Shown piece by piece: positions 45,385 to 60,681 of a stretch of 64,000 bases of DNA (positions are counted from its first letter, which is position 1; every line of letters starts with the position of its first letter). This stretch comes from an uncultured Gammaproteobacteria bacterium (GTDB lineage: Bacteria; Patescibacteriota; Patescibacteriia; JACPHY01): assembly GCA_964585225.1 (NCBI GenBank), contig CAZPCZ010000001.1, positions 6,018 to 70,017 of the forward strand. The letters are read 5' to 3'. The notes beneath the pieces were generated by a model. That model saw only the letters and a program-made list of their open reading frames with translations. It was not told where the DNA came from and searched no databases. A program made the position numbers and the translations under genes.

Positions 45385-46395
45385 CTACGTATCGAGCCGA
45401 TCGCCAGGACGCATGCGGAGCGACCGGACCATGCGCCTAGCAGGAATAATACGACCTCGAGATACGCACGCGATGATGCGGAATGCACCGTCACCGCACG
45501 CAACGACGGGACACCCCGCATCATCAATGGTGAGCACGGTCCCGGGCGCCACGGGATGTCGCGCTACGGATACCGCTTCGCCATCCCACACGATGAGGGC
45601 ATGGCCACGACACGAAGTGATGCCGCCGCTCTTCGGACGAATCGCGTAGCAGGTGCGACGAATGCTCGCTCCTGTGTCGGTCCACGCGATGTGCTGGTGC
45701 GCACCGTGGTAAGGCGGATCGTATGTTGACGCATGCTCTTCCTGCGGGATCCCGCGCAGCACACCGACACGCGCCGCAGCGAGTACACGATCTGCCGTCG
45801 CAATGACCGCGCGGATGACCTGAATCTCCACATCGCCCCACGTTGCGTCTGCTGCAACTGTAACGCGCTCTCGCGTCAGGATATCTCCTGCATCGAACGC
45901 CGCGGTGACGAGGTGCGCGGTCACGCCGGTTTCCCGTTCTCCCAGCCGCACGACCCAGCGATTAGGCGTGCCGCCGCGATGTTTTGGGAGGAGCGCCGGA
46001 TGGAGATTCACCATCCCGCGTACCGGTACTGCGATTACCGATGATGGAATCTTGCGATGGAACCCAGCAACGAACACGAGATCGGGCGCGCACGCGCGCA
46101 GCGTGCCTGCGCACGTTGGCATTCGGATGGTGTCCGCAGCGAGCACCGGAATATCGTGGGCACGCGCAATCGTCGCAGGTGAATCGTAGGCGTCGAATGG
46201 ATCGCTGCATGCCAGCGCACGGCCCCACCATGCGGCGCGGAGACGCTGCGCCACGCGGATCATCACCGGAGTGACGGAGTCGAATCGCGTCACCACTGCA
46301 CAAATCTTCTCCCCACGAGCAAGGAGATGCGTCAAGAGTGCAGATGCATATCCGCGATTCCCGAATACCGCGATGCGAAATGGTGCGGTGGTCAT
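45385..46395 (-). CDS. Formyltransferase (Fmt/ArnA-N-like), candidate sugar N-formyltransferase
   Basis: N-domain ...VNLHPALLPKHRGGTPNRWVV plus a C-terminal Fmt-like domain. Start MTTAPFRIAVFG has an ATGA overlap. Confidence 0.75.
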   Translation of the reverse strand: MTTAPFRIAVFGNRGYASALLTHLLARGEKICAVVTRFDSVTPVMIRVAQRLRAAWWGRALACSDPFDAYDSPATIARAHDIPVLAADTIRMPTCAGTLRACAPDLVFVAGFHRKIPSSVIAVPVRGMVNLHPALLPKHRGGTPNRWVVRLGERETGVTAHLVTAAFDAGDILTRERVTVAADATWGDVEIQVIRAVIATADRVLAAARVGVLRGIPQEEHASTYDPPYHGAHQHIAWTDTGASIRRTCYAIRPKSGGITSCRGHALIVWDGEAVSVARHPVAPGTVLTIDDAGCPVVACGDGAFRIIACVSRGRIIPARRMVRSLRMRPGDRLDT

Positions 46396-47450
46396 ACCAA
46401 TCGCCCGCACTTCTTCACTGCCACGCCGAGCCGCGTGCTGAACGGGGCAGGGAGGATGCGCATGCCGATGCACGCCGCGCTCATTGCCGCAGCATGCGCC
46501 CGCTGCGCAATCGAACGCTCCGGCGTCACGCTGCAGGCCATGGCGTAGTAGGTCATCGGTTCCGCAACGCCGCCGAAGTGCACCTTTGATGCGTGGACGC
46601 TGCCGCTGACTGACGACTCACCCATATCGAGAAGCGGAATCCTGCGCGCGACGCATCGGCGGAGCGCTTCCCACATGAGGAGCTGCATCGGCGCGTACGC
46701 ATCGCTCCCCGGGAGCGCCGCGGCAAACGGGTAGACTGCACGACGCGGCCCGACACAGAGGAACATACCCGCGATGATCGCGCCGTCGCGCTCCACAATG
46801 TGAAGCTCCGTGTCGTGCGGACGCGCGGCGAGCACCATCGCGAAGAACTCCCGGGAGTGAATCGGCACACCCTTCGCGAGCATCCGCCGCGCGTAGCATC
46901 GATAGAACGCGTCAAGGTCTCCCGCGCGCCCCGCGCGCACCGTGCAGCCGGACCGCTCGGCGCGGCGAATCATGTTCCGCGTCTTGTTCCGCAGTGCGCT
47001 CCACATCTCCCCCCCCGAGGCCGCGATGGGCATCACGACGGTCTCCTTCTCTCGCGTCGCACCGGCAACCGCAAAATGCACCGGCCCGGACGTCACCAGT
47101 GCCGCAGGGATACGACGCGCGTCCGCCTCCGATCGCACCGCAGCGAGCAACGCCGCCGCAACCGCATCATCCATAGCAACGAGCCCGTACCGAAACGAGT
47201 AGAGCACGCCATCTCTGGCAACGTACGCCGGACAGCAACCGACGATCGCACCCGCGCGGTCGGTCGCGAGGAACCGTAACACCGGGATGCCATACACGGA
47301 CGCGATGGCATCGCACCAACCAAAGGAAACAAGCGCTGGTACCGACGCATGCACGTCGGCAAACACATCCCACGCCGCGGCATCCTCAGGCGCCGCGAGG
47401 CGAACGTCACACCGCGGGATCACTGTGTGGAGAGCGTCTGGAGCGCGCAC
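46392..47450 (-). CDS. FemAB/Acetyltransf_6 (GNAT-fold) family protein, putative aminoacyl/acyl transferase
   Basis: 352 aa. Duplicated GNAT-like halves. Family call is tentative. The N-terminus overlaps the ABC gene by about 31 nt. Confidence 0.45.
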   Translation of the reverse strand: MRAPDALHTVIPRCDVRLAAPEDAAAWDVFADVHASVPALVSFGWCDAIASVYGIPVLRFLATDRAGAIVGCCPAYVARDGVLYSFRYGLVAMDDAVAAALLAAVRSEADARRIPAALVTSGPVHFAVAGATREKETVVMPIAASGGEMWSALRNKTRNMIRRAERSGCTVRAGRAGDLDAFYRCYARRMLAKGVPIHSREFFAMVLAARPHDTELHIVERDGAIIAGMFLCVGPRRAVYPFAAALPGSDAYAPMQLLMWEALRRCVARRIPLLDMGESSVSGSVHASKVHFGGVAEPMTYYAMACSVTPERSIAQRAHAAAMSAACIGMRILPAPFSTRLGVAVKKCGRLV

Positions 47451-49204
47451 ATGGAGTGGAATTTCGATGCCGTGTTCCCGGCGAGCACATCGAATGTTCC
47501 CTCCTCGACGACACGCCCCCCGTCAATGACGTACACGTAGTCAGCACGCCGGATGGTGGAGAGGCGATGGGCGATGAGCACGATCGTCCGCTTCCCCGAG
47601 AGTCGCTCAATGTGCTGTCGGATGATCTCCTCGGATTCGGAATCGAGCGCGCTTGTCGCCTCGTCGAAAATGAGAATCTGCGGATCGCGAAACAGCTCCC
47701 GCGCAATCGCGATGCGCTGGCGCTGGCCGACGGAGAGCGCGATACCGCGATCACCAACTGGCTCGGAAAATTGTCCGGGGAGCCGATCAATGAAATCGCA
47801 CGACGCGTCGCGCGCGCGCCGACGGAGATCAGTGTCATTCGTCGCCGACCAGAACGCAATGTTCTGTGCAACCGTATCGTTGAACATGACGATCTCCTGC
47901 GCGACGTACCCCACCATCGCGCGGAGCGAATCGCGATCGAGCACGCGGTAGTCGGTTTCGTCAATCGCAACGCGTCCCGCGGAGGGTATGAGGACGCCGG
48001 TGAGGATATCCACGATCGTGGACTTGCCGCCACCGGAGGGGCCAACGAGCGCGACGGTCCGCCGTGCCGGGAATCGGAGCGAAACGCCCGCAAGCGCAGG
48101 ACGGTCGCCGTACGAAAAATGGACGTCCTCAAAACAAATCTCGCGCGCAACCGTCTCCACGCGCACCGCGCCGCGCGGCTCCGGATGTGCCGCTGCGGCC
48201 GTGAGCGCATCCTGCACCGTCCGGAGCGAACCGCTGCATCCCACGAACTTCTGCCAACTCGACTGGAGGACCAGAATGCGCATGAGCGTCCGGTAGAGGA
48301 GCAACGCGAGCACTGCAGTGGTGGCGAATGGATTTCCAATGAGCACGACGCTCCCGTAGAGGAGCGCGATGAGGACGAGGATGGCGAACGGCTCCGGCAG
48401 CGCCGCCATCGTCGCACCGACGACACCCATTCGGTACTGCGAATGCGTCATCCGTTCGATGATCGTCCGAAGTCGTTGCTCCATCATTGGAAATCGCGCC
48501 GTCGCTTTCAGGTACTTGAAGTGTTGGAGGAATTCGATGAGCTGATCCTGAAATCGGACATTTTCTCCCGAGAATTGGATCGAGTGCACACCCGCGAGAC
48601 CAACCCAATGTCGGAGGCCGACCATCGCAGCGATTCCGAATACCACCGCGATGCCGGTAATGCGTGGGTCGAGGAGAAATGAACCGGCGAGGTACACCGC
48701 AATGTACACGATGCTCACGAGGAGGAGACAGGCGTACGAGAATGCGCTCAAGAACGTCCAGAGCTCCCGCGTGAGCACGTTCGTGAGCGATCCGGTCGTC
48801 GTCTGTAAGTAGAACTCGCGGTATTCCGACGACGTCCACCCGTGCATAAGGCGTCTCGCGAGCGAACGGTAGAGATCCCGCGTGATCCGTTGAATCGCAA
48901 TCTGCTGGAGGACCGTGACCGAGAATTTCACGAGGAACACCACGGCGATCACGATGAGGAGTCGCGGGAGTGTTGTGAGTCGCAATGCGGTGAGCATCCC
49001 TCCGAACACCGACGGTGCGTGCCCAGCACCGCCCATTCCAACCGTGAGTTGCTCAAGCACGGGAAGGAACAATATGATCCCTACACCCTCGAAGAGGCCC
49101 GCGACGAGCATGAGCGGCGGGAGGAGCAGGATCCTCCCCCTCGCGAGGCGCGCGAAGGTGCGTACGGACGTACGCAGGATGGCGAAGGGAGTATCGGTAG
49201 TCAT
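47420..49204 (-). CDS. ABC transporter, fused permease/ATPase (MsbA/PglK-type lipid-linked glycan flippase/exporter)
   Basis: Six-TM domain followed by an NBD with Walker A GPSGGGKST, ABC signature LSVGQRQRIAIAR and Walker B ILIFDEATSALD. Start MTTDTPFAIL has an ATGA overlap. Confidence 0.9.
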   Translation of the reverse strand: MTTDTPFAILRTSVRTFARLARGRILLLPPLMLVAGLFEGVGIILFLPVLEQLTVGMGGAGHAPSVFGGMLTALRLTTLPRLLIVIAVVFLVKFSVTVLQQIAIQRITRDLYRSLARRLMHGWTSSEYREFYLQTTTGSLTNVLTRELWTFLSAFSYACLLLVSIVYIAVYLAGSFLLDPRITGIAVVFGIAAMVGLRHWVGLAGVHSIQFSGENVRFQDQLIEFLQHFKYLKATARFPMMEQRLRTIIERMTHSQYRMGVVGATMAALPEPFAILVLIALLYGSVVLIGNPFATTAVLALLLYRTLMRILVLQSSWQKFVGCSGSLRTVQDALTAAAAHPEPRGAVRVETVAREICFEDVHFSYGDRPALAGVSLRFPARRTVALVGPSGGGKSTIVDILTGVLIPSAGRVAIDETDYRVLDRDSLRAMVGYVAQEIVMFNDTVAQNIAFWSATNDTDLRRRARDASCDFIDRLPGQFSEPVGDRGIALSVGQRQRIAIARELFRDPQILIFDEATSALDSESEEIIRQHIERLSGKRTIVLIAHRLSTIRRADYVYVIDGGRVVEEGTFDVLAGNTASKFHSMCALQTLSTQ

Positions 49205-50799
49205 GCGTGGACACGGGTGAAGGAAGGCGCAGCCGCTGCCGGCACGCCGTCGCCCGATGGGTGCTCCACTCGCAGGGAGTCGATGAGCGTGCGGTAGCAC
49301 ACCTCCACCTCCCGCGCGGTCGCGGGCACGCGCTGCTTCGATGCGTAATCGCTCCACGAGAAATCGAATCCCGTCTGCTTCAATGCTGCGAGGAATCGGC
49401 GCCCATCACGCTGACGCTGTTCGCGTGCAACGGCGGTGTCGCCCGCGCAGAGTCGCGCGAGGAGTGGACGAAGTTCTAACCATGACCGGACGACGTGCAC
49501 GTGGGGGAGGAAGTTGTACAGGTTATGGAGACCAAATGAAATGACCGGTACGCCGAGTACGGCGGATTCGAGACCGAGCGTCCCCGTGATCACCGCGACC
49601 GCGCGTGCGCCGCGCGCCGTGTCGAGCGCGTACGCGTACGGCGAGAGCATGACGACGTTCGGGATGTCGAGGAGCGTCGCGTAGAAGTCGCGCGGGCGCC
49701 GGCCAACCGCAGCGAGGTGCTCCTTCACCACGAGCCGCACGCCCGCGGGGAGGTTCTTCGCGAGGAGCTCCACACACGCGAGCTGCTCGTTCATCTCCGG
49801 CGCCACCATGCCCATGGAGGACTCCGGCTCGACGTGGAGCGGGAAGAAGACGTACGGCTGCCGCTCGAGTTCGCGAGCATCCGCGAGCGGGAGCTGTGCC
49901 AGCTGCCGGAGATCGGCACGCGTACGGGCGAGGGACCGGAGCTGCTCCGTGAGTCGGTAGTTCCCCATCGTCACCACGCTCCGCGCGCGACGCGCCGCCA
50001 TCTGCCGGATCTGTTGGAAGGACTTCTGGAGGAACACTGGGAACGATATTTGTCGCGCAAACGTCCGGTAGTACGCGTCCGTGAACGGAAGGCGACGCAT
50101 CGCGGCGAGCTCTGCATCAGGAACGATTACCTTTGCTTCAGCGTCAGTGAGCGCAGCGTAGCGGTTCTGCACCGCTGGTACCGAATAGTACTCATCGATG
50201 CACCACGCATGGTACGCCTGGTAGTACAGGAGGAGGAGCGCGCGCATCGGGATCTTCCGATGCTGTGCGATGACCGAGCAGAGCTTGCCGAGGATGCCGC
50301 TCGTGTTCCCGATGACGAGTGACGGCTGCACGCGGTCGAAGTACTCCTCCCAGAACCGCACGACGCCATTGAAGAGGTGGACGGATTTCGCGTACGTCGC
50401 CTGGTCACTGAGATGAGACCGCGGATGCCCTGGCCCAGCAGCGGCGAATCCGCGGCCGAGGTGACGATCCGTCTGGAGCACATCGACGACGTACGTCCCG
50501 TAGTGCTCCTCGTACGCGCGTGCGATCGCGAATACCTGCACGTCATTCGGTGGTGTTCCGTACTCGCGGAAGAAGTGATTGGTGGTCGTGAATGAATCGA
50601 CCACCGCATCTCCACCCTGCCGCTTCCAGAACGCAACGCTCGAGTCATTCGTCGTCACGAAATGAATCGCCGCCCCATGGCGACGCTTGAGCTCCCGCGC
50701 GAGCGGTATCCAGAGCCACAGGTGGTTCGTGTACCCCCAGATGACGACGCTCCGCAGTTGTTCACCCCTTCCACTCCTCACGGAGGATGCCGTACTCAT
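49201..50799 (-). CDS. Capsule-polysaccharide-synthesis family protein (KpsC/KpsS/LpsZ-like, retaining glycosyltransferase candidate)
   Basis: YVFFPLHVEPESS ... RLVVKEHLAAVGRRPRDFY ... NVVML blocks resemble Pfam Capsule_synth. Start MSTASS chosen; alternative at 50853. Confidence 0.5.
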   Translation of the reverse strand: MSTASSVRSGRGEQLRSVVIWGYTNHLWLWIPLARELKRRHGAAIHFVTTNDSSVAFWKRQGGDAVVDSFTTTNHFFREYGTPPNDVQVFAIARAYEEHYGTYVVDVLQTDRHLGRGFAAAGPGHPRSHLSDQATYAKSVHLFNGVVRFWEEYFDRVQPSLVIGNTSGILGKLCSVIAQHRKIPMRALLLLYYQAYHAWCIDEYYSVPAVQNRYAALTDAEAKVIVPDAELAAMRRLPFTDAYYRTFARQISFPVFLQKSFQQIRQMAARRARSVVTMGNYRLTEQLRSLARTRADLRQLAQLPLADARELERQPYVFFPLHVEPESSMGMVAPEMNEQLACVELLAKNLPAGVRLVVKEHLAAVGRRPRDFYATLLDIPNVVMLSPYAYALDTARGARAVAVITGTLGLESAVLGVPVISFGLHNLYNFLPHVHVVRSWLELRPLLARLCAGDTAVAREQRQRDGRRFLAALKQTGFDFSWSDYASKQRVPATAREVEVCYRTLIDSLRVEHPSGDGVPAAAAPSFTRVHA

Positions 50800-51394
50800 A
50801 CATATCCACGTACTTCCCAAGCTTGTACATTGCCTTCCGCCGCACCCCCTCACGCTGCATCCCGAGCTTTCCCGCGAGCTTCTGCATCGCGATGTTCTCA
50901 GCGGATGTCCCGCAGTAGATACGGACGAGATTCAGTCGCTCGAAGGCGTACGCAATGACGAGCTGCCCGGCCTCGAACCCGAACCCCTTCCCTCCGTGCT
51001 CGTGCCCAATGATGAACGCGATCTCCACGCTCCGCGCAATCCAATCAATCGCTTGGAGCGAAACGTTCCCCACGTGACGGTCGCTCTCCCGCTCAACGAT
51101 CGCGAAGATGACGAGGTCGCCGCCCGCTTGTGCGCGCTCGAGGTACTCGCGCATCCGACGTTCCGTATTTGGGAACATCGCATGGGAGTTGTACCGACAC
51201 GTCTCCGGGTCATTGAACCACTGGAAGTACGAACCCGCGAGGTCACGCTCCTCAAGCCCGCGGAGGTAGATGCACTCACCAATGAGGAACGGGCGGTGCA
51301 TCGGGCGCGCATCGCTCCCCGAGACCGCCACCGCAGCCTGGGACGCACCGCCGTGCGGAGGAGTGAAAGGCATACGCAGGTTCACGCGCGTCAT
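50762..51394 (-). CDS. GNAT N-acetyltransferase (RimJ/RimL-like)
   Basis: ...IGHEHGGKGFGFEA... acetyl-CoA binding motif A. ATGA overlap with the DegT stop. Confidence 0.75.
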   Translation of the reverse strand: MTRVNLRMPFTPPHGGASQAAVAVSGSDARPMHRPFLIGECIYLRGLEERDLAGSYFQWFNDPETCRYNSHAMFPNTERRMREYLERAQAGGDLVIFAIVERESDRHVGNVSLQAIDWIARSVEIAFIIGHEHGGKGFGFEAGQLVIAYAFERLNLVRIYCGTSAENIAMQKLAGKLGMQREGVRRKAMYKLGKYVDMYEYGILREEWKG

Positions 51395-52719
51395 TGCTCA
51401 AACGCCATCGCTTGCACCGCAAGCGCGGTGCGGTGCTCCCACACCTTCTCGAACGCCGCAACGATATCATCGAGGTCGGCACGCGACAACCCCGGATGCA
51501 TGAGCTCACTGATGAAGAGCTCGTCACCGTAGAGGCGCTCCGCGACCGGACAGCTCTCCGGTTCATACGACGCGAGCGCACTCGGCTGTGCCAGCGTGAA
51601 GGGGTACCCGTGCCGTCCAATCGCGACGCGCTGCTGGAACATCGGCTGGAGGTAGAGGGGTTTCGTGTACCCGGGCCACATCCGCACGCCGAGATCCTCA
51701 TGGTGCTCGGTCGGTGTGAGCTCGGCAACCACCGCGGCGAGGAATGTGTCGCGCGGACACCCCGCGATGTCGCTCCGGAACCGAAACGCGTGCTCGTAGA
51801 ACACATGCGTTGCGCTGGGGCGCACGCGCGGCGGCGTGAGCGCGGGGATGCGCCCGAGGCGCTCCGCGAGGTACGCGCAGTTCCGGAGACGCTCCGCCAC
51901 GAACCCATCCAGCTTCCGAAGCTGGCACCGACTGATCGCCGCCTCGACTTCGGTCATGCGGATGTTGAATCCGACCATGTTCGTGAGGTCCGTGACGCCC
52001 TTGTCACCCACCACCGCCTCCGCATGGTTACGAATGAGCCGAACGCGATCCGCGAGCCGATCGTCGTTCGTGACCACCATGCCGCCCTCCCCCGATTGGA
52101 TGTGCTTGTGGCAATTCAGAGAGAACACGCCGATGTCGCCGAGCGTACCCGCGCACGTGCCGTCATCGCGCGCACCCGGAGCCTGGGCGGCATCCTCGAT
52201 GACCACGAGACCATTCGCACGTGCGAGCGCATTGATCGCCGTCGAATCGTATGGCTGTCCGAAGAGATCCACGACGATGATCGCTTTGGTGCGGTCAGTA
52301 ATCCGCGACTGTACCGATACAGGATCGAGACAAAAGTACTCCGACTCGACGTCCGCGAATACCGGAATGCCGCCGTAGAAGAGCGGCGCGGTCGCCGACG
52401 CGCTCATGGTGTACGGCGACACGATCACCTCGTCACCCGGGCTGATCCCCGCAGCGCCGGCTGCTGCGATGAGGCCGGATGTCGCAGAGTTCACTGCAAT
52501 CGCGTGCTTGATGTGGAAGTACGCGGCCCACTCCTCTTCGAGCGCGCGTACCTCCGGTCCGCCGTAGAATCGCGGATCCCACGAACCAAGGAAGCCGGAC
52601 AGGATGCCGCGGTCGAGCACGCGGGCAACGGCCTCCTGCTCTTCGCGCCCAATGGTGCGGTGGTCAGGGAACGGTGCTGTACGGACCCGCGGTCCGCCGT
52701 GGATTGCGAGCGTACGCAT
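51391..52719 (-). CDS. DegT/DnrJ/EryC1/StrS-family PLP-dependent sugar aminotransferase
   Basis: Start MRTLAIHGGPRV. ...AIAVNSATSGL..., SLNCHKHI (PLP lysine region). About 440 aa with a longer C-terminus than typical. Confidence 0.8.
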   Translation of the reverse strand: MRTLAIHGGPRVRTAPFPDHRTIGREEQEAVARVLDRGILSGFLGSWDPRFYGGPEVRALEEEWAAYFHIKHAIAVNSATSGLIAAAGAAGISPGDEVIVSPYTMSASATAPLFYGGIPVFADVESEYFCLDPVSVQSRITDRTKAIIVVDLFGQPYDSTAINALARANGLVVIEDAAQAPGARDDGTCAGTLGDIGVFSLNCHKHIQSGEGGMVVTNDDRLADRVRLIRNHAEAVVGDKGVTDLTNMVGFNIRMTEVEAAISRCQLRKLDGFVAERLRNCAYLAERLGRIPALTPPRVRPSATHVFYEHAFRFRSDIAGCPRDTFLAAVVAELTPTEHHEDLGVRMWPGYTKPLYLQPMFQQRVAIGRHGYPFTLAQPSALASYEPESCPVAERLYGDELFISELMHPGLSRADLDDIVAAFEKVWEHRTALAVQAMAFEQ

Positions 52720-52729
52720 ATCGTCGTGC

Positions 52730-53758
52730 TCATCGTGACGATCGTCGGGGCAGAACGACGCGCTTCCCGTCCTTCCGCGCACTCTGCTCGAGTGCATGGA
52801 TCACCTCGAGCGCGCGGAGCGCATCCTCTCCCGTGCTGACCGGCGCATCGCGCCCCTCCAAGCAATCCACGATGTGCGGGAGCACAGGTTTCAGGAAGCT
52901 CCGCGGCGCACCGAAATGCTTGATCCGTTCGTAGTTCAATTCTCGATAACTGGAGTACTCATCGCTCGCGCGGGTGCCAATGACCTCGATGTCGAGTCCC
53001 GACTCGTGCTTCAAGTTCATCCTCCCCTTCTCGCCGAGGAAGCTGACCTCCGAGAGGCAGTACTCGCGCGAATCGAAGTACTGCAACGCCGCAGTGGCAC
53101 CATCGAATCCCAAGAGTGCGTCCACGCGGACATCGTGCGGGTCTTTCGGGAACACGGTATTGGTCACCGCGCTCACCCAGCGTACCTCACCGAGGAAGAA
53201 GCGCAGGAGATCAATGAAATGCGTGCCACCATGGTACAGCCCCTTATCGTACGATGCAATCGCCGAACGCACGGCGCCGAGGAAGGTATCGTGCACGTAC
53301 CCGCCACGGAGGTTCTCCCAGAATTTTCTGATCCACGGATCAAACCGACGGCCATGGTTTACGAAGAGGAGCACCCTGTGTTTCCGGCAATGGCGAACGG
53401 CCTCGCGGGCTTCTCGCACATTGTGCGAAATTGGTTTCTCGCAGAGGATTGCCTTCACCTTTCGCTTCGCGGCGAGCGTCACGAGCGCGCAGTGCGACTC
53501 CGGCATCGTTGCAATGATGACGATGTCCGGATGCGCCTCCTCCAGCATCTGCGCGATGTCGGAAAAGCGCGGCACATTCGGGTAGAGCCGCTTCGCACGT
53601 GCGAGCGAGCGCACATCTGTATCTGCGAACGCCGCGAGTCTCACGCGCCGGTACGACGCTGCGGCCTGCGCATGGCTCGCGGGTGGGACACGCAACGGAT
53701 CAAGCTGGGCGCCCAACCCAATCCACCCGCATCCGATGATCGCGACCTTGTACTTCAT
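52730..53758 (-). CDS. Gfo/Idh/MocA-family NAD(P)-dependent oxidoreductase (sugar dehydrogenase)
   Basis: MKYKVAIIGCGWIG Rossmann motif. ...LCEKP... motif. ATGA overlap with the cytidylyltransferase stop. Confidence 0.8.
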   Translation of the reverse strand: MKYKVAIIGCGWIGLGAQLDPLRVPPASHAQAAASYRRVRLAAFADTDVRSLARAKRLYPNVPRFSDIAQMLEEAHPDIVIIATMPESHCALVTLAAKRKVKAILCEKPISHNVREAREAVRHCRKHRVLLFVNHGRRFDPWIRKFWENLRGGYVHDTFLGAVRSAIASYDKGLYHGGTHFIDLLRFFLGEVRWVSAVTNTVFPKDPHDVRVDALLGFDGATAALQYFDSREYCLSEVSFLGEKGRMNLKHESGLDIEVIGTRASDEYSSYRELNYERIKHFGAPRSFLKPVLPHIVDCLEGRDAPVSTGEDALRALEVIHALEQSARKDGKRVVLPRRSSR

Positions 53759-54537
53759 GCTCTCTCTGTCGTGTACCCGACACGATTGATCTGCTGGCGC
53801 TGTGCGCGAAGAAAAATCTCCGGCTCTCGGTCGGCGAATGTGAGGAGGTCGTCGAGATCGAACCGCGGGTTCTGTGGGTGCAACCGTGCGTAGATCGCTC
53901 GCATGATGGCGAGGTCCGTCGGTGTATCGAGGAGGAGCTCGAGGTTCGGACGGTGGTACCTCGGCGGTGCGGTGTAGTGGTAGATCGAGAACGCGTTGGG
54001 GTGGTTTCGAATGAAGTAGTTCACGTGCTCGAAGTTGTTACGGTCGCTCCGGTACGGCTCCTCCTGAGCCATCGCGTACGCGCGCTGGAGCGCGGGAAAA
54101 CGGACGACCTGGACGTCAATGCCCGGTGGGAACGTATCCTCGAGGCAGTTCGAGAGGAGATCGCACCCGCGTTCGAAAAACAGCGCGATGCCAGCATCAA
54201 GGATCATCGGAGAGATGCACGAGCAGTCGCCGGTCACGAGCACGAGCACATCCGCACCCGCGAACGCCCCGGCGCCCACGACCCGCCCGAGTACGTCATC
54301 CTCGCTCCCCCGGAACGCGCGCACGCCGAACCGATCGGCGATGGCGACGATCGCACCATCGCGGGCCTCCGTGCTCGTGGCGACCACGACCTCATCAATG
54401 CGCGGGGCAGCACGTACGCGCTGAATTACCGCTCCGAGTGCCGGGAGTCCCGGCGCGAGCTCAAGCGCCATCTTCCCCGGGAGCCGCGTCGCCCCCATCC
54501 GCGCTTCAATGGTCGCCACGACCCGCTGCCGCTGCAT
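53755..54537 (-). CDS. Cytidylyltransferase (CMP-nonulosonate / SpsF-NeuA-like, CTP_transf_3)
   Basis: Start MQRQRVVATIEARMGATRLPGK (signature ARMGSTRLPGK). The ORF-track N-terminal 80 aa are S/R-rich shadow sequence and were rejected. Overlaps the AsnB stop by about 32 nt. Confidence 0.75.
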   Translation of the reverse strand: MQRQRVVATIEARMGATRLPGKMALELAPGLPALGAVIQRVRAAPRIDEVVVATSTEARDGAIVAIADRFGVRAFRGSEDDVLGRVVGAGAFAGADVLVLVTGDCSCISPMILDAGIALFFERGCDLLSNCLEDTFPPGIDVQVVRFPALQRAYAMAQEEPYRSDRNNFEHVNYFIRNHPNAFSIYHYTAPPRYHRPNLELLLDTPTDLAIMRAIYARLHPQNPRFDLDDLLTFADREPEIFLRAQRQQINRVGYTTERA

Positions 54538-56362
54538 ACTCCCGCACGTGCTCCTCGAGGAACATCCGCGCATTGATGACGTTGAATAGGAACTTGCTCG
54601 TGCTGTTCGGCAACGGCTGTGCATCGAGGAGCTCCGCGACCGCGTGGCGGTCAACGTAGTCGAAAATGCTGCCGGGACCGAGGATGCGTTCGCGGACCGT
54701 ACGATCGCGAAGGTCCACGAGTGACGTGAGTGAGGCGTTGAACCCCTTCTTCCGACGGTCCAAGCGCACACGCTCATTCAGTGTACCGCGCATCGCCTCG
54801 CGAAGCCCGTACTTTCCGTATCCGTCCCGAATGAGATGTTCGCTCGGAATCGAGTACGCGAAGTCGCACAACCGCGAATCCAGGTATGGGCTCCGGTTCT
54901 CAATCGAGTAGTACATGGAGTTCAAATCGTCCTCGTGGAGGATCACTGGAATCACCTCGTGGAACAGCTCGTTGAGCATGCGATTCCGGAGAAGCGACGC
55001 GCAGAATGTGTGCTCGGTGAACTGCTCGCGGAAGTCCACGGTCAGGTACTGTGCGAATCGGTCACGTTCGTCGTAGACGTGATCTCGAAAATTCGGATTC
55101 GCGGTATAGAGGTTGGGATTCTGTAAGAGTGGATTGCGCACCATCGGTACGACGTGCGCGGCGAAGGCACTGCGGGCGTTGGCGTACTCCGAATGATGGC
55201 GCATCTCGTAGAGGTGGAGCAGGAAGTGATCGTAGTACCCCGTCACCAATTCGTCCGCTCCAGTTCCGGAGATCGCGACGCGGTAGCCGGCGCGTGCAAT
55301 GGCCTCGGAGAGGTACGAGTGGACGAAGTAGGAAATCGTCGCGACCGGTGCATCATGGTAGCGGATGAGCTGTTCGAGGCGTTCAAAGAACCCCGGCTGC
55401 GGGAACGGGATAGCGGTGTGCTGGCAGTGCACATCGTCCACCGTCGCACGGATGTTCTCCTCCTCATTGTAGCGCTCGTCGCGATCAATGACCGAGAACG
55501 TCGCGACGTGGTACCCAAACTCCTTCGCGGCGATGGAGACGAGCGATGCCGAGTCCACGCCACCGCTCAGACAGAACGCGAGCGGCACGTCTGCGCGCAA
55601 GCGGATGCGCATGCTCTCGATGAGGCGCGTACGAAATCCCTCCACCACATCCGCGAACGTCATGTCCTGCGGCGCGACCGGTGGGCTCCAGTACCGGTAT
55701 GAACGAACCGTCCCGTCCGCACGCACGATCACGTTCGTCGCGTACGGAACCTCCCGGACACCAAGGAAGAACGTATCGCTCCCCTTGTGGAGCGATTTGT
55801 ACCCATTCACGAGGTACCGGAGCAGATGCTGCGTGTTCACGCCAAGCGATTGGCCGGAGAGCGCCGCGAGGAACTTGATTTCGGAGCCGAAGGTAATGCC
55901 ATCTGTGGTCTCCAGGAGGTAGAGCGGCTTCTCGCCGAACCGATCGCGGGAAAGGAACACAGTCTGCGACCACGCATCGTGGATCGCGAACGCCCACATG
56001 CCCTCGAAATCGTTCACGCATGCCTCACCGTGCGCGAGGTACGACTGGAGGAGCACCTCGGTGTCTGAGGTTGTACGAAACGTCACCCCACGCTCCTCGA
56101 GACGTTTTCGGAGTTCCACGTAGTTGTAGATCTCCCCATTGAACACGATCGTGCGCCCGTCGATCGTCATCGGCTGGTGGGAACGCGGATCGAGATCAAT
56201 GATGCTCAACCGCGAGTGGAGGAGCACGCCAGAGCGATCGCCGATCCGAACGCGAAGGAATCGCTGCGCATCCGGACCGCGACGCTCCATGAGGCGGAGC
56301 GTCGCTGCGATCCGTTCCTCATCCGGTGGTCGTGTGCCGACGTAGCCAGCGATTCCGCACAT
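54506..56362 (-). CDS. Asparagine synthetase (glutamine-hydrolysing) family amidotransferase
   Basis: Start MCGIAGYVG (Cys2 nucleophile). SGGVDSAS PP-loop. 618 aa. Confidence 0.9.
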   Translation of the reverse strand: MCGIAGYVGTRPPDEERIAATLRLMERRGPDAQRFLRVRIGDRSGVLLHSRLSIIDLDPRSHQPMTIDGRTIVFNGEIYNYVELRKRLEERGVTFRTTSDTEVLLQSYLAHGEACVNDFEGMWAFAIHDAWSQTVFLSRDRFGEKPLYLLETTDGITFGSEIKFLAALSGQSLGVNTQHLLRYLVNGYKSLHKGSDTFFLGVREVPYATNVIVRADGTVRSYRYWSPPVAPQDMTFADVVEGFRTRLIESMRIRLRADVPLAFCLSGGVDSASLVSIAAKEFGYHVATFSVIDRDERYNEEENIRATVDDVHCQHTAIPFPQPGFFERLEQLIRYHDAPVATISYFVHSYLSEAIARAGYRVAISGTGADELVTGYYDHFLLHLYEMRHHSEYANARSAFAAHVVPMVRNPLLQNPNLYTANPNFRDHVYDERDRFAQYLTVDFREQFTEHTFCASLLRNRMLNELFHEVIPVILHEDDLNSMYYSIENRSPYLDSRLCDFAYSIPSEHLIRDGYGKYGLREAMRGTLNERVRLDRRKKGFNASLTSLVDLRDRTVRERILGPGSIFDYVDRHAVAELLDAQPLPNSTSKFLFNVINARMFLEEHVREYAAAAGRGDH

Positions 56363-56376
56363 ACTGCTCGCTTCAC

Positions 56377-57126
56377 TCAGAGCACGGCAACGTGCGGCGC
56401 TCGGTGCTCCTGCTCCGCAAGTGTCTCCGTGTGCTGCGCGAATCGCTCGATGCATACCGCTTTCAGCACCACGGGCATAGCCGAGTAGTACCGTCCGCGC
56501 GTCCGCTGCGGACGGTCAAGGAATCTCCCGTCGCGCGCGCGTCGGTCGAGCGCTGCGAGCGTGAGCGCGGCGCAGGTCTCCGCGTTCGCGGCGCGGAGCT
56601 CGTGGAGCGGCATCCCGCGCCGGAGCGGTACCGCTGCCTGCACAATGATCGTCCCGTCATCGAAACGTTCGTTCACGCGGTGGAGCGTCGCGATGAGCGC
56701 GATGAAGTCGCGGTGGTAGATCGCCCAGAGGTGCGTGTCGAGCCCGCGGTACTGCTCCGGATCGCCGCCGTGGAGGTTCACGAACCCCGTCGGGCAGCGC
56801 GCAATGGTCGGAGCGGCAATCTTCCCGGTCCCGAAGCTCACGACGACGTCCGGGCGCACGGCGTCGAGCACCGCGAGCGCCTCCGCGTCGTTCACGGACT
56901 CTACGGATGTCGTCGGAGCGAACTCCGCAACGGAGGGCTCCGCGCCGCCGAACCACCGGGCGCACTCGTGCGCATCCCGCGCACCTTCGTACGGGTGGTG
57001 GGTGGGGAACGGGAACGTCGCGCGTCGCCGTTCGGAGAGGACGCGGGCGCCCGGGTACGCTCGCGCGATCTCCCGAACGAAGTACGCGTGGTGCGGCGTC
57101 TCGGTGGTGAGGATGACGACGGTCAT
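56377..57126 (-). CDS. Formyltransferase N-terminal-domain protein (Fmt_N-like)
   Basis: ...VSFGTGKI...GFVNLHGGDPEQYRGLD...TIIVQ resembles the formyl_trans_N core. No C-terminal Fmt domain. Start MTVVILT has an ATGA overlap. Confidence 0.6.
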   Translation of the reverse strand: MTVVILTTETPHHAYFVREIARAYPGARVLSERRRATFPFPTHHPYEGARDAHECARWFGGAEPSVAEFAPTTSVESVNDAEALAVLDAVRPDVVVSFGTGKIAAPTIARCPTGFVNLHGGDPEQYRGLDTHLWAIYHRDFIALIATLHRVNERFDDGTIIVQAAVPLRRGMPLHELRAANAETCAALTLAALDRRARDGRFLDRPQRTRGRYYSAMPVVLKAVCIERFAQHTETLAEQEHRAPHVAVL

Positions 57127-58157
57127 GCGCGTTGCACAACGGCCTCCGCAACCCACGCCCGCTCGATGATGACCCCTTTCGGGACGGGCTCCCGGAGCAC
57201 CTTCCCGATGACCTCGTGCTCATATCCGGGCGGGATGCCGCTGGCCGGGCGCACCCACGTGAGGTGCTCGCGGGCGAGGACGGTCCCTGCCGGGAGGTCC
57301 TGCGCCGCGGCGATGGAGCGTCGGAATGCAACGCGGCCCTGCTCCTCGCATGGTTGCGGCTGCTTCACGCCGCTCCCGAGCATCGACTCCGTGGTACGGA
57401 CGCGCGTGATGAGTTGCCGGAGCTCGTCCAGCGTTGCCGAGAGCTGGTGGTCACGGAAGTCCGAATGGTCGTGGGCGATGGTGAAGTGCTTCTCGATGAT
57501 CCGAGCGCCGAGCGCAATCGCGGCGACCGCCGCGTCGTCCCCCATCGTGTGATCCGAGTACCCGATCGTGCAGTCCGGGAACCGCTCGCGAAGCGCGGTG
57601 ATCGCGCGGAGGTTCGCCTGCTCCGGTGGGACTGGGTACGCGGCAACGCAGTGGAGGAGCGAGAGATCCGCTGTCGTACCGACCGCGCGCTGCGCAGTGC
57701 GGACGCGCGCGACCGCTGCCGCAACTTCGTCGAGGGTCGCAGTGCCGGTCGAGAGGATCACGGGCTTGCCGGTCGCCGCGACGGCATCGAGGAGCGGATA
57801 GAACGTGATGTCACCGGAGGCAGTCTTGAACACCGGCACGATGGGTTCGAGGAACGATACGCTCCCAAGGTCGAACGGTGTGGAAAAAAATACAATCCCA
57901 ACATCCCGAGCCACCGCGGCGAGGTGTCGCACCGCATCGTGCGCGAGTGTAAACTTCCGGAGCCGCGCAAGGCGCTCCGCATCGCGGCTACTCGCGTAGT
58001 GGTCGGGATTGAAGGTCTGGAGCTTCACCGCATCCGCGCCCGCATCAGCCGCGAGGTGAACGAGCTCCTCCGCGAGTGCGGAATCGCCCTCGTGGTTGTT
58101 CCCGACCTCTGCGACGACGACCACGCGCGTGTTCGTATCGAGCGAACCTATACGCAT
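57123..58157 (-). CDS. neuB: Nonulosonic acid synthase (NeuB family: sialic/legionaminic/pseudaminic acid synthase)
   Basis: VVVAEVGNNHEGD N-terminal signature, TIM-barrel region, C-terminal SAF-like domain (...GKVLREPVPKGVII...). Alternative GTG start at 58175. Confidence 0.85.
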   Translation of the reverse strand: MRIGSLDTNTRVVVVAEVGNNHEGDSALAEELVHLAADAGADAVKLQTFNPDHYASSRDAERLARLRKFTLAHDAVRHLAAVARDVGIVFFSTPFDLGSVSFLEPIVPVFKTASGDITFYPLLDAVAATGKPVILSTGTATLDEVAAAVARVRTAQRAVGTTADLSLLHCVAAYPVPPEQANLRAITALRERFPDCTIGYSDHTMGDDAAVAAIALGARIIEKHFTIAHDHSDFRDHQLSATLDELRQLITRVRTTESMLGSGVKQPQPCEEQGRVAFRRSIAAAQDLPAGTVLAREHLTWVRPASGIPPGYEHEVIGKVLREPVPKGVIIERAWVAEAVVQRA

Positions 58158-58236
58158 AGAGAGCGCGAGAGCCACCGCAGCACGCCGTGCGTGGGATGTA
58201 CACGTGATGGTCGTGCTGACCGGTGGCCCAAGAATA

Positions 58237-59187
58237 CTACATCGATGGTCCCAACGAAGACCCTCCGTCTACCATGACGGGGATGCGACGGAGGTGGAAG
58301 GGATCGGCCTCATGCGTGTTCACGCCGTCGATCGCCGTCGGGCAGCAGACGATGCTGTGCGTCTTGAGACGTGCAATAACCGCGTCGTCGTAGTGGTGCG
58401 CGAGCCCCTCCGGGTACGCGTAGTGTCGCGCCACGACGCCTGCGCACTCGCGGAGCAGCCGCACGCTCATTGCGATCTCCCGCTCACGATCCGCTGGCGT
58501 ACAGAACGAGAGCATCGCATGCGAGTGGGTATGGCCACCGACGATGAACCCGTCCTGCGCCGCCAACGCGCGCACCTGCGCCCACGAGAGCTTTCGATCC
58601 AACGCATCGTCCCAGGTCATCGCCTCATCCACGCCGCACTGCTGGAACGTACACGCAACGAGCGCAGCGCGATCGATGGAAGGATCAACCTTCGCCCGCA
58701 CGCGGATCGCGTCGAGCAGTGCGATGCGTTCTCCGACCGACGAGAACACGCGGTCACGCTCCTCCCACGGGAGGCGTACTGCCCCTGGCGCAGCGTACTC
58801 GAGACACGCCTCGATGCGATCCACCCACGAACGCTCGTCGCTGCCGACCCAGCCGGTCGTCACGTAGAATGTTGCCGGCAACCGGAAATCGACAAGGATG
58901 GGAGCGGCAACGGATGCGTTGTTCTCGAACCCATCGTCGAACGTCAACGCGAACGATCGAGGTGGAAATGCAACGTGCTGCGCGCAGTGCGTGAGAACGT
59001 CATCCATCGTGAGCGGTGTCCCGCGCTCCCGCAGCATCCGGAGGAGCGCAATGAATTCCGCGCGCGCGATGTGCTTCCGGTTGTAGTTACGTACTGGGTG
59101 TGTGTGCCGTTCCACGACCCCATGGAAGAGGTAGATCGCGCATGCACGATCGTCGAGCCGATTCGCAAAGAACAGAGGTTCAATCAT
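58237..59187 (-). CDS. Polysaccharide deacetylase (CE4 / NodB homology domain)
   Basis: ...FALTFDDGFENN... (TFDDG motif) ... HTHSH. Start MIEPLFF with GGGAGG 6 nt upstream. ORF-track N-terminal 115 aa rejected. Confidence 0.75.
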   Translation of the reverse strand: MIEPLFFANRLDDRACAIYLFHGVVERHTHPVRNYNRKHIARAEFIALLRMLRERGTPLTMDDVLTHCAQHVAFPPRSFALTFDDGFENNASVAAPILVDFRLPATFYVTTGWVGSDERSWVDRIEACLEYAAPGAVRLPWEERDRVFSSVGERIALLDAIRVRAKVDPSIDRAALVACTFQQCGVDEAMTWDDALDRKLSWAQVRALAAQDGFIVGGHTHSHAMLSFCTPADREREIAMSVRLLRECAGVVARHYAYPEGLAHHYDDAVIARLKTHSIVCCPTAIDGVNTHEADPFHLRRIPVMVDGGSSLGPSM

Positions 59188-59231
59188 AAGCATCCTCCCA
59201 CGTTCGCAGCGTACCAGCGATACCTGCGCGG

Positions 59232-59693
59232 TCAACCCGGTACCGCCACCGGTTGCGGTTGCATTGCGAACGCCGACCGGAGTGCCGTGATGTGCGCCGC
59301 GCACTGCTCGGGCGTGAGCTCGTGTACCGCATCGAGGACCGGCGCGCGCGGCCAGCCAGGATCGGTGAACATCATCCCGTAGAACTCTTTCGGTCCGGCG
59401 TACCGCGGCAGGATTGCCGCATGCGCCTCGGGCGTCGCCATCATGAGGAACAGGAGGTTCAGGCGGTCGGGCGCAAACACGCGCGAGAGCGCCGCCTCCG
59501 TGTTCCGCATCACCATGGCAAACTCTGTCCACGCCTCCGGCATGATTCCGCCGAGCGTCATCGCCTCCCCGCGATACACCACGAGGAGCGCACCAAGCGT
59601 GAGCGGACGACGCTGCGCGAGCACGAGCCAGTGGCCGTACTCCGCGACGAGCGTATCGGGATGCCCAAAACTGATGAGGGCTTCAGCGCGCAT
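59232..59693 (-). CDS. HIT-like fold protein with degenerate histidine triad
   Basis: GHWLVLAQRRP...NLLFLMMATPEAHAAILPRY aligns with the HIT fold pattern (GH.LViPK ... N.G..AGQ.V.H.H.HiiPR). Only one His of the triad is retained. Confidence 0.4.
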   Translation of the reverse strand: MRAEALISFGHPDTLVAEYGHWLVLAQRRPLTLGALLVVYRGEAMTLGGIMPEAWTEFAMVMRNTEAALSRVFAPDRLNLLFLMMATPEAHAAILPRYAGPKEFYGMMFTDPGWPRAPVLDAVHELTPEQCAAHITALRSAFAMQPQPVAVPG

Positions 59694-60681
59694 GTGATGC
59701 GTTTCGATGGAACACGCCGGTCGCGTGGAGTGGCACGGGGGCGTTTGCACTCACGATCGCCTGAACCGCCTCACGAACCGTCGCCAACCGATCGTAACGC
59801 TGCGCCGTAGCGCCGAGAGGTGTCCCATCATCTGTCAGTATCGCGTGTGTAATCCAGAGACACCGATCCACGGCGCAGACGAGCAGACCGCGCTCTGTGA
59901 TCCGGTAGATCCGTCCCGGCTCTCCGTAGTACGGCGTCTCCGACAGCGCCGATCGGAGGAGCTTCACCCTCCGTCCCTTCCAGTACGTGAACGCGCCGGG
60001 GTAGGGATCGGTGAGCGCACGGATGCGATTGTGGACCTCTTGCGCCGTGAGCTGATCCCAGAGGATGAGTCCGTCGTCCGGAAACCGGATCGGGAAGTAC
60101 GCTGCCCGCGCGGGGTCCTGCGCGCGGAACGTCGCCGCACCGCGCGCGATCGCCTCCACCGCCGCGAGGAGCATGGAGGGGAATTCGCGCTCCGCAACCG
60201 CGTGGAGGTCGCCAATCGTATCGTCGGGGCCAATGGTGAACGTCCGATCGAGGATGACATCGCCGGTATCCACGCCGCTCGCCACCCGGATGATGGAGAG
60301 CGTGAAGGAGGGCTCTCCGCGGATGAGCGCCCAGTTCATCGGCGAAGAGCCGCGGCACTCCGGGAGCTTTCCCCCGTGGAGGTTCACGGTCATCACGGAC
60401 GGGATTACGATCGTGTGCTGCTGGAGAATCCTCCCGTAGCCGCCCAAAACGAAGAGGTCCGCTCGTTGCGCCTGGAGCGCGAGCATCGCATCGTCAGCGT
60501 TGGGATCGTCCGGCCCGAGGACGGGGATACCGCGGCGTTCGGCCGCATCGCGCACTGACGTCGGCGCGTCTCCGCGGTCTTCCGGGTGCACCACGACGCA
60601 CACGATGTCGTGTGTGGTCCCGCAGAGCGCGTCAAGGCACGCGACACCACGCGCGCCCTTCCCCCAGAAGACGATCCGCAT
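59683..60681 (-). CDS. Formyltransferase (Fmt-like, N + C domains), candidate sugar N-formyltransferase
   Basis: MRIVFWGKG...VNLHGGKLPECRGSSPMNWALIRGE plus a C-terminal domain. Confidence 0.75.
   Translation of the reverse strand: MRIVFWGKGARGVACLDALCGTTHDIVCVVVHPEDRGDAPTSVRDAAERRGIPVLGPDDPNADDAMLALQAQRADLFVLGGYGRILQQHTIVIPSVMTVNLHGGKLPECRGSSPMNWALIRGEPSFTLSIIRVASGVDTGDVILDRTFTIGPDDTIGDLHAVAEREFPSMLLAAVEAIARGAATFRAQDPARAAYFPIRFPDDGLILWDQLTAQEVHNRIRALTDPYPGAFTYWKGRRVKLLRSALSETPYYGEPGRIYRITERGLLVCAVDRCLWITHAILTDDGTPLGATAQRYDRLATVREAVQAIVSANAPVPLHATGVFHRNASHAR

Follow-up and report, generated by a model that had tools for sequence, protein, structure and literature searches.

Nonulosonic acids (NulOs) cap the surface glycans of bacteria, and the acyl groups carried by their nitrogens set charge as well as recognition by phages and the immune system. 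To our knowledge, few enzymes that modify these nitrogens are known, examples being PseH, PseJ, PseA and PtmG/H. Here, we investigated a 64,000-nucleotide stretch of DNA from an uncultured bacterium (assembly GCA_964585225.1, contig CAZPCZ010000001.1, positions 6,018 to 70,017 of the forward strand; 'the window' below), in which genes for a NeuB-family NulO synthase, three formyltransferase-like (Fmt) proteins and three asparagine synthetase-like (AsnB) proteins lie on the minus strand. An original prediction, made from the sequence alone, had seen in them a pathway for a NulO carrying N-formyl and amidino groups. Based on gene families and gene order, we consider it likely, with some reserve, that they belong to a modular operon for a cytidine monophosphate (CMP)-activated NulO of the 5,7-diamino type bearing formyl groups.

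N-formyl NulOs made by Fmt-fold enzymes are already known, as the prediction had assumed. PseJ of Anoxybacillus kamchatkensis makes Pse5Ac7Fo (PDB 6CI2); in a canonical PseB/C/G/I/F pathway, this single-domain, Fmt-fold enzyme of 189 amino acids (aa) takes the place of the N-acetyltransferase PseH on the 4-amino group of the nucleoside diphosphate (NDP)-hexose, which gives the N7-formyl group. The glycan of the archaeon Halorubrum sp. PV6 carries Leg5Fo, and its formyltransferase gene lies within a canonical LegB/C/H/G/I/F cluster that includes a NeuC-type LegG. The closest described system, by its description, is that of 'Candidatus Kuenenia stuttgartiensis', whose CMP-NulOs carry one formyl group and one free amine and whose cluster runs legB, legF, legC, deacetylase, formyltransferase, neuB, legF and legG (SugarBase preprint, 10.64898/2026.04.20.719630). 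In Acinetobacter baumannii KL49, ElaB-ElaA-ElaC is the 8-epimerase of CMP-Leg5,7Ac2, and the Gfo/Idh/MocA protein ElaA oxidizes C8 of CMP-Leg. As for amidino groups, PseA is the amidine synthase of the literature, and an AsnB homologue in the O-glycan locus of Tannerella forsythia has been proposed, as a hypothesis only, to make Pse5Am.

Compared with these systems, the locus studied here stands apart by having two formyltransferases in one cassette, a constant AsnB and a constant Gfo/Idh/MocA protein (Gfo hereafter) and no LegG or PseG, and by lying beside two more NulO-associated modules. It is known chemistry in a new arrangement, not a new kind of system, and its main value is as an entry to a common, uncharacterized NulO cassette that lacks NeuC. 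In this cassette, which is common in environmental bacteria, the synthase is directly accompanied by a deacetylase, an AsnB-type amidotransferase and one formyltransferase or two, and the usual NDP-sugar hydrolase is lacking.

Genes of the NulO cassette

Pfam and NCBIfam scans were run on around 45 of the open reading frames (ORFs) of the minus-strand gene chain, and an exact-match look-up retrieved a metagenome contig (L001) with 100% identity over window positions 49683-64000, reaching 2.3 kb further, whose gene calls were used to refine start codons. Module A, from position 54506 to beyond 64000, is the local copy of a widespread, experimentally uncharacterized NulO cassette; it is followed by modules B (50762-54537) and C (39611-47450). 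The prediction had placed the pathway at 45385-60681, where genes of it do lie, but the cassette continues to past 64000: the L001 extension upstream of the window holds a methyltransferase (MT) gene, a second CTP_transf_3 gene (CTPup, 230 aa) and the 5' end of the first Gfo gene, GfoA. The local order of module A is (MT)-CTP-Gfo-DegT-SDR-Fmt1-(hyp153)-CE4 deacetylase-NeuB-FmtN-AsnB2.

All of these genes are on the minus strand. GfoA (63068-64000, its 5' end beyond the window; 355 aa in L001) is a Gfo/Idh/MocA oxidoreductase by Pfam and the L001 gene call. DegT1 (61821-62984; PF01041, 388 bits) is a pyridoxal phosphate-dependent sugar aminotransferase nearest to the 4-aminotransferases PseC and ArnB, and SDR1 (60703-61824; Pfam Epimerase/GDP_Man_Dehyd, NCBIfam) is an extended short-chain dehydrogenase/reductase and putative NDP-hexose 4,6-dehydratase of the RmlB/LegB kind. 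Fmt1 (59683-60681) has both the N- and the C-terminal domain of formyltransferases (PF00551 and PF02911) and the N-H-D triad. PDA (58237-59193; PF01522, 64 bits) is a NodB-type de-N-acetylase of carbohydrate esterase family 4 (CE4), to which its metal and catalytic motifs assign it (TFDDG at residue 84, HTHSH at residue 221); its nearest solved structures are PgaB and BpsB. Next come the NeuB-family synthase with its SAF domain (57123-58157; PF03102 237.6 bits, SAF 38.6 bits), FmtN (56377-57126; PF00551), a single-domain formyltransferase of a distinct family of around 237 aa, and AsnB2 (54506-56362), a predicted glutamine-hydrolysing, ATP-dependent amidotransferase with GATase_7 and Asn_synthase domains, Cys2 and an MCGIAG N-terminus. 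Chance is excluded for the listed genes by E-values of 1e-11 to 1e-116 and by high G+C at third codon positions (GC3) in the coding frame.

Much of the predicted inventory was recovered by Pfam and NCBIfam, namely the NeuB homologue with SAF domain, a cytidylyltransferase, two DegT and two Gfo proteins and a GNAT, and the coordinates given for all six Fmt and AsnB genes were exact. The synthase belongs to the NeuB/SAF family, not to the KDO8P or DAHP synthases: its PDB matches were PseI (158 bits), NeuB (150 bits) and SpsE (148 bits) and no others. As foreseen, there are two Fmt proteins with N and C domains (Fmt1 and Fmt2, the latter in module C) and one with the N domain only (FmtN). All three carry PF00551 and an intact Asn-His-Asp triad, which places them in the folate-dependent N-formyltransferase superfamily, and they are not Met-tRNA formyltransferases, scoring 133.2 (Fmt1), 123.9 (Fmt2) and 28.4 bits (FmtN) against TIGR00460 (cutoff 201.5). 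Neither of the two results named in advance as refuting the prediction was thus obtained. In FmtN, the residues N117, H119 and D156 do not vary and match the NxH...D catalytic motif of PurN in the alignment; the family motifs NLHGGDP..YRGLD and GRYYS are likewise invariant. The FmtN family is large, with >1000 matches at 45-66% identity and, at E<=1e-30, 267 cluster representatives at the 50%-identity level. An AlphaFold2 (AF2) model of FmtN (pLDDT 93.7) has the ArnA formyltransferase domain, Fmt, WbkC, Rv3404c and PseJ as its nearest solved folds.

Between Fmt1 and the CE4 gene lies hyp153 (59232-59693), a gene call for a protein of 153 aa with a degenerate HIT-like motif (HIT E=0.05 only), which reads EAHAAILPR where HxHxHxx is expected. 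It was found only in the cassette copies of this organism (L001-L005), with no match in the other cassette loci.

Distribution of the cassette and the gene slot before NeuB

A search with the NeuB protein against one genome per species retrieved copies of 53-55% identity in three Planctomycetota metagenome-assembled genomes (MAGs) and one Tectomicrobia MAG. In the Planctomycetota copies, tblastn with the window proteins gave the order CTP, Gfo, DegT, SDR, Fmt1, NeuB, FmtN, CE4 deacetylase and AsnB; in the Tectomicrobia copy, the same search placed a GNAT in the Fmt1 slot and did not detect FmtN and CE4 genes. The cassette is also present in a 5.5-Mb genome, and a metagenome profile scan gave 80 more loci. 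All parts of module A are present, with 43-65% identity to the Planctomycetota, Tectomicrobia and metagenome copies, which identifies it as a NeuB-FmtN-CE4 cassette.

Cassette counts were taken over 46 loci that contain FmtN and span at least 6 kb, many of them on truncated contigs. The CE4 gene lies immediately 3' of FmtN in 44 of these loci; NeuB is present in 43 and immediately 5' of FmtN in 39, and 34 contain an AsnB2 orthologue. The CTP-Gfo-DegT-SDR block was found in 25-28 loci, a number to be read with the truncation of contigs in mind: orthologues of GfoA (39-53% identity) lie directly after CTP_transf_3 in 25, those of DegT1 occur in 25 and those of SDR1 (41-65% identity) in 28. The most informative result is the alternation in the gene slot immediately before NeuB, which is taken by a GNAT in 14 loci and, in another 14, by a formyltransferase of the Fmt1 type. 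The slot GNAT of locus L011 is WecD-like, WecD being the dTDP-4-amino-4,6-dideoxygalactose acyltransferase. Given this alternation between formyltransferase and WecD-like GNAT, Fmt1 is best read as an N-acyltransferase for the DegT-derived amine.

The same slot logic links Fmt1 to PseJ, which also stands in for an N-acetyltransferase, and the fold neighbours of FmtN include PseJ. Unlike PseJ, Fmt1 carries a C-terminal domain, and its PDB sequence matches at E<=1e-8 did not include PseJ. The cassette also departs from the PseJ route in having no PseB, PseG or PseH equivalogs and in adding a second formyltransferase, a CE4 protein, AsnB and Gfo. Halorubrum sp. PV6, besides being archaeal, has no CE4, AsnB or Gfo in its cluster. 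With Kuenenia, the cassette shares a deacetylase and a formyltransferase inside a NulO cluster with two legF-like cytidylyltransferases, and the closest cassette copies in the genome collection, at 53-58% identity, are carried by Planctomycetota MAGs. The predicted formyl modification is borne out to the extent that Fmt1 and FmtN are integral to a NulO cassette found across phyla; for Fmt2, two of the six contexts sampled have a relative next to NeuB and CTP_transf_3.

A different use for the formyltransferases would be the synthesis of formamido-deoxyhexoses of the Qui4NFo/Fuc3NFo type, with SDR1-DegT1-Fmt1 as a route independent of NeuB. SDR1 scores best with dTDP-glucose 4,6-dehydratase, the sequence and fold neighbours of the Fmt proteins include WbkC, Rv3404c, FdtF and QdtF, and there are GDP-mannose dehydratase and RmlD-like genes and an RmlC/FdtA-like cupin gene elsewhere in the window. 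The prediction had allowed for such a sugar made via FdtA-like cupins; we found a single Pfam-supported cupin (3556-4095, minus strand), and it is more RmlC-like than FdtA-like. The synteny described above tells against this use, since in at least 25 loci, spread over different phyla, SDR1, DegT1 and the acyltransferase slot accompany NeuB, and FmtN sits directly 3' of NeuB in most of the 46 loci; moreover, the cassette would lose the source of diamino-hexose for NeuB. We regard a formamido-deoxyhexose as very unlikely.

Proposed chemistry of module A

While domain assignments, intact catalytic residues, gene order and the alternation before NeuB are direct observations, the substrates and the order of steps are all inferred from family membership and gene-slot logic. 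SDR1 would dehydrate an NDP-HexNAc at C4/C6, DegT1 would aminate C4, and Fmt1 would N-formylate the resulting amine, which later becomes N7 of the final sugar. After its release, the hexose would be condensed with phosphoenolpyruvate by NeuB, and the CTP_transf_3 enzyme would make the CMP-sugar. The CE4 deacetylase would then take off the N5-acetyl group derived from GlcNAc and FmtN would re-acylate N5 with formyl; an exchange of the GlcNAc-derived N-acetyl for formyl is the simplest reading of the FmtN and CE4 pair, as far as their families and positions indicate. The predicted product is a CMP-activated NulO of the 5,7-diamino type bearing formyl groups, and AsnB2 may carry out a glutamine- and ATP-dependent amidation once the formylated product has formed. 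An N-formylated NulO of this type is well supported by the comparative evidence and by precedent in PseJ, Halorubrum and Kuenenia. The cassette offers candidate enzymes for replacing the otherwise fixed N5-acetyl group, as well as a genetic basis for the NulOs with formyl groups and free amines that mass spectrometry recently revealed in an anammox bacterium.

Several observations weigh against this assignment. None of the proteins scored as high as the equivalog cutoff of a Neu, Leg or Pse enzyme, so that the scores fix neither a stereochemical series nor exact substrates. The subfamily comparison of synthase, cytidylyltransferase and aminotransferase that the prediction had proposed consequently gave leanings below cutoff and no series: NeuB leans to NeuB/LegI, DegT1 to PseC and SDR1 to RmlB/LegB. 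The scores (cutoffs in parentheses) were, for the synthase, 292.6 bits with TIGR03569 (399.65) and 253.7 with PseI (340.25); for DegT1, 302 with TIGR03588 PseC (423.5), 270 with ArnB and 221.6 with the LegC family (420); and, in other Pse steps, 28 with PseH (93.1) and 27 with PseF (205.7). SDR1 gave 124.6 bits with dTDP-glucose 4,6-dehydratase, 79.9 with LegB (475) and no match with PseB; since Polysacc_synt_2 reached only 25 bits, the gene at 60703-61824 is RmlB/LegB-like and not the PglF/CapD-like dehydratase first proposed. Neither NeuC/LegG nor PseG occurs in any Pfam-annotated cassette copy, and as a result no enzyme is assigned to freeing the hexose from its nucleotide. The proposed 5,7-diamino (Leg/Pse) route thus stands as a NulO locus in which an enzyme of the NeuC or PseG type is missing. 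Any role given to GfoA, GfoB (the Gfo protein of module B), AsnB2 or the second cytidylyltransferase is a guess. The CE4 gene here lies upstream of NeuB and not after FmtN, and an FmtN and CE4 pair is also found without NeuB (L013:10001-11610), so that the pair is not specific to NulOs. Some of the 46 loci are near-duplicates (L006-8, L011/12, L036/37), and the counts overstate independence. Kuenenia, which we compared by its description only, has LegG and one formyltransferase, and no Gfo or AsnB is mentioned there.

The WecB/NeuC-type 2-epimerase that the prediction had included does exist in the window (18916-20199, minus strand) but it is a WecB-type, non-hydrolysing UDP-GlcNAc 2-epimerase, with 199.7 bits for TIGR00236 against 58.4 for NeuC. 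A NeuC-type epimerase was rejected as part of the route: this gene is the sole Epimerase_2 gene of the window and lies 37 kb from NeuB, and none is found beside related cassettes. A phmmer search with the window protein over all ORFs of the 46 loci gave a single match, a WecB gene beside WecC around 3.9 kb upstream at the edge of L011. The cassette therefore offers a defined protein set in which to seek the missing hydrolase step, and Gfo/Idh/MocA is the obvious orphan beside this unfilled step.

The lone FmtN and CE4 pair of L013, a 4.98-Mb genome, lies next to an EamA transporter gene and housekeeping genes with no NeuB within 10 kb, which makes the pair a self-contained unit. This bears on an alternative modelled on the Arn pathway, in which formylation would be transient: FmtN would formylate the new amine and so pull the unfavourable transamination along, and CE4 would later deformylate it to leave an end sugar with a free, positive amine. 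ArnD, the deformylase, is itself a CE4 enzyme. The adjacency of FmtN and CE4 in nearly all loci and their occurrence as a stand-alone pair would fit such a scheme, as would the ArnA formyltransferase domain being the closest fold to FmtN, the presence in module C of a small ArnC-like GT2, an SDR and an ArnT-like PMT_2, and the Kuenenia NulOs, which have one free amine and one formyl group already as CMP-sugars. Modules A and C together even share a part list with Arn: Fmt fold, DegT, de-N-acylase, small GT2 and PMT_2 glycosyltransferase of the GT-C type. However, the CE4 protein is nearest to the de-N-acetylases PgaB and BpsB, with no solved ArnD structure among its matches at E<=0.01; N5 comes acetylated from GlcNAc, so a deacetylase is required anyway; and half of the cassettes have a dedicated acyltransferase for the DegT-derived amine, which removes the requirement for transient protection. 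The locus also differs from Arn in that no UDP-GlcA decarboxylase fusion is present (139, 113 and 33 bits for the Fmt proteins with the ArnA model, cutoff 777), a PIG-L protein and not a CE4 protein accompanies Fmt2, and a FemAB-like protein stands with them. We consider transient formylation rather unlikely.

AsnB homologues and the question of amidino groups

The window has three AsnB homologues, as had been noted, of which the one at 39611-41230 (AsnC) has no catalytic Cys. AsnB1 (13045-14931, minus strand), a full homologue with an MCGIAG N-terminus, is situated among GT4 and methyltransferase genes outside the NulO cassette. AsnB1 and AsnB2 qualify as glutamine-hydrolysing asparagine synthase homologues, with 441 and 380.7 bits for TIGR01536 (cutoff 267.1); AsnC, without the Cys, scored 44.8 bits. 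AsnB1 also gave 411 bits with the XrtA/PEP-CTERM amidotransferase model (cutoff 817).

According to the prediction, AsnB-like proteins related to PseA would install amidino groups, and formyltransferases and amidotransferases together would make one multiply N-modified NulO with formyl and amidino substituents. AsnB2 is an intact glutamine- and ATP-dependent amidotransferase within the cassette, and the AsnB homologue proposed for Pse5Am in Tannerella forsythia offers a parallel. PseA, however, presumably belongs to the WbuX family (TIGR03573), and none of AsnB1, AsnB2 and AsnC matched that model (cutoff 203.2 bits); the window homologues are of a different family. A true WbuX gene follows the AsnB2 orthologue in L011 (L011:14822-15949; 304 bits for TIGR03573), and tblastn found WbuX homologues next to the AsnB2 orthologue in 20 of the 46 related cassettes, whereas no homologue of the L011 gene was found in the window. 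Since WbuX coexists with AsnB2 orthologues, AsnB2 is no stand-in for PseA. AsnB1 and AsnC, moreover, lie around 40 kb and 14 kb away from the cassette in other conserved modules, and the three paralogues share at most 31% identity (31% between AsnB1 and AsnB2). The same applies to the copy number that had been taken to indicate one multiply modifying pathway: each family is represented by three unrelated paralogues (24-31% identity) in different conserved modules. We consider amidino groups installed by these proteins quite improbable. In a further locus, L095, a TIGR03573 WbuX gene is found with HisH- and HisF-like genes (L095:11879-14451) adjoining an Fmt2 homologue.

Module B, a second cytidylyltransferase and Gfo pair

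Directly downstream of module A on the minus strand, module B comprises CTPdn (53755-54537; PF02348), a cytidylyltransferase like SpsF and PDB 6OEW (95 bits with 6oew); GfoB (52730-53758), a Gfo/Idh/MocA oxidoreductase by Pfam with an AF2 model of pLDDT 93.6; DegT2 (51391-52719; Pfam and NCBIfam), a second pyridoxal phosphate-dependent aminotransferase; and a GNAT of the Acetyltransf_3 kind (50762-51373; PF13302, 94 bits) with faint similarity to PseH (28 bits). The four are distant paralogues of module A genes (29-37% identity), CTPdn being 36% identical to CTPup and DegT2 37% identical to DegT1. The fold neighbours of GfoB, namely WlbA, DgpA, RgNanOx/YjhC and inositol dehydrogenases, score alike and do not discriminate functions.

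All three contexts in which relatives of GfoB were sampled are NulO clusters; in one the relative immediately follows CTP_transf_3, and in the other two it lies 3-4 kb downstream of that gene. In a Candidatus Uhrbacteria cluster (L101), the GfoB relative is followed directly by an Acetyltransf_3 GNAT, and a DegT2 orthologue (44% identity), NeuB, a PseB-like SDR and an Epimerase_2 gene are also near. By the company that its relatives keep, module B is clearly NulO-associated. Its resemblance to ElaB and ElaA suggests that it probably acts on a CMP-sugar: in A. baumannii the cytidylyltransferase gene is followed by the Gfo gene, and the same CTP-then-Gfo order occurs twice in this operon. In contrast to the Ela genes, Gfo is followed here by an aminotransferase and an acyltransferase and not by an ElaC reductase, and there was no ElaA-named chain among the PDB matches of the Gfo proteins. 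Module B may either repeat the steps of module A for a second derivative or attach a further amino group once the sugar is CMP-activated. In two of their three contexts (one at L100:5090-10050), the GfoB relatives stand within runs of three to five tandem Gfo/Idh/MocA genes with a BNR_2 sialidase-like gene, placed between CTP_transf_3 and DegT/NeuB or MBOAT genes.

The Gfo/Idh/MocA family presumably includes enzymes that drive elimination by transient oxidation, and the neighbours of GfoA in profile comparisons are sugar 3-dehydrogenases. Taken together, the two Gfo genes and the lack of a hydrolase could point to a NulO route independent of NeuC and PseG, with Gfo and cytidylyltransferase carrying out redox chemistry on the nucleotide-sugar. 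Gfo would either release the hexose by transient oxidation at C3 and elimination or oxidize a hydroxyl of the CMP-NulO; through module B the CMP-sugar would gain a third N-acylamino group, and AsnB2 would convert formamide into formamidine. If true, this would yield a triamino and/or formamidino NulO that has not been described before. As a joint proposal we judge this decidedly unlikely, and keep to a formylated 5,7-diamino-type NulO.

Module C and the FemAB-like/Fmt2/PIG-L trio

Module C (39611-47450, minus strand) begins with a FemAB-like gene (46392-47450; Acetyltransf_6 by Pfam and NCBIfam) for a putative aminoacyl-tRNA-dependent transferase, the stop of which is overlapped by 4 bp by the start of Fmt2 (45385-46395), a formyltransferase with N and C domains and the N-H-D triad. 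There follow a PIG-L family de-N-acetylase (44562-45527; PF02585, 85.7 bits), a small GT2 of 231 aa (43842-44537) like the polyprenyl-phosphate glycosyltransferases AglJ, PpgS and ArnC, an extended SDR dehydratase/epimerase (SDR2, 42656-43825), a PMT_2 glycosyltransferase (41237-42631; ArnT-like, GT-C) and AsnC (39611-41230), with an Asn_synthase domain. The Fmt2 family is small, with around 60 detectable relatives.

The FemAB-like, Fmt2 and PIG-L genes recur as a trio in four of the six contexts sampled (L094, L097, L098 and L099), with PIG-L orthologues of 39-49% identity. L097 repeats the whole block, from FemAB-like through Fmt2, PIG-L, GT2 (66%), SDR2 (85%), PMT_2 (65%) and AsnC (61%) to a GT1-like gene, at 43-85% identity, while L098 and L099 have NeuB, CTP_transf_3 and a small GT2 immediately next to the trio. 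Aminoacyl-tRNAs serve as donors for enzymes of the FemAB family. Since this is so, the trio suggests, by the families of its members, that a second amino sugar is deacetylated and then aminoacylated and/or N-formylated, and it is a lead of its own towards N-(formyl)aminoacyl sugars. Delivery is probably via a polyprenyl-phosphate carrier to the GT-C enzyme, as the small GT2, like ArnC and AglJ, and the ArnT-like PMT_2 indicate. A purely Arn-like reading of Fmt2 was set aside as a partial analogy only: its partners are FemAB-like and PIG-L proteins, and two loci have NeuB and CTP_transf_3 with no GT-C beside the trio.

Operon structure and other genes of the window

The G+C content of the window is 58-67%. 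Its minus strand carries a near-continuous chain of GC3-supported ORFs from a WecA-like Glycos_transf_4 gene (2395-3423) to past 64000, which is a single very large glycan locus by Pfam and NCBIfam. Between 39611 and 64000, neighbouring genes either share 4 bp or leave gaps of 10-83 bp; a consensus scan gave no promoter-like sites, and terminator-like sites were at chance level. The short gaps and overlaps and the lack of promoter-like sites are consistent with co-transcription of 39611-64000. The region most likely represents the promoter-proximal portion of a single minus-strand surface-glycan operon of great length (60 kb), assembled from at least three pre-existing conserved modules.

Two genes lie between modules B and C. 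The first, hyp532 (49201-50799, minus strand; 532 aa), is possibly a KpsC/KpsS-like transferase using a CMP-ulosonate, with a Capsule_synth match below cutoff (PF05159, E=0.006, 16.6 bits) and no NCBIfam match. It is followed by a fused TMD-NBD ABC exporter (47420-49357, minus strand; Pfam and NCBIfam) like HepA, MsbA and PglK, whose true start is probably downstream of 49357. The two may form a pair for CMP-ulosonate transfer and export. A gene with a weak Capsule_synth match is near NeuB in L099 too.

In the downstream part of the chain, at 27986-28576 (minus strand), two overlapping frames resemble a split cupin; they had no Pfam match even at E<=1, and this candidate, which was set aside, may be a frameshifted gene or nothing. 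The interval 20267-29665 (minus strand) contains a GDP-mannose 4,6-dehydratase, a GDP-fucose-synthase-like SDR, a sugar C-methyltransferase with a zinc-binding domain, an RmlD-like reductase and FkbM methyltransferases; a branch of methylated 6-deoxyhexose is probably another product of this operon. Two PMT_2 GT-C glycosyltransferases and three small GT2 proteins are encoded at 41237-42631, 24132-25556, 43842-44537, 22511-23275 and 29700-30455 on the minus strand, which suggests more than one polyprenyl-phosphate-sugar side-branching system besides the cytoplasmic GT4 enzymes.

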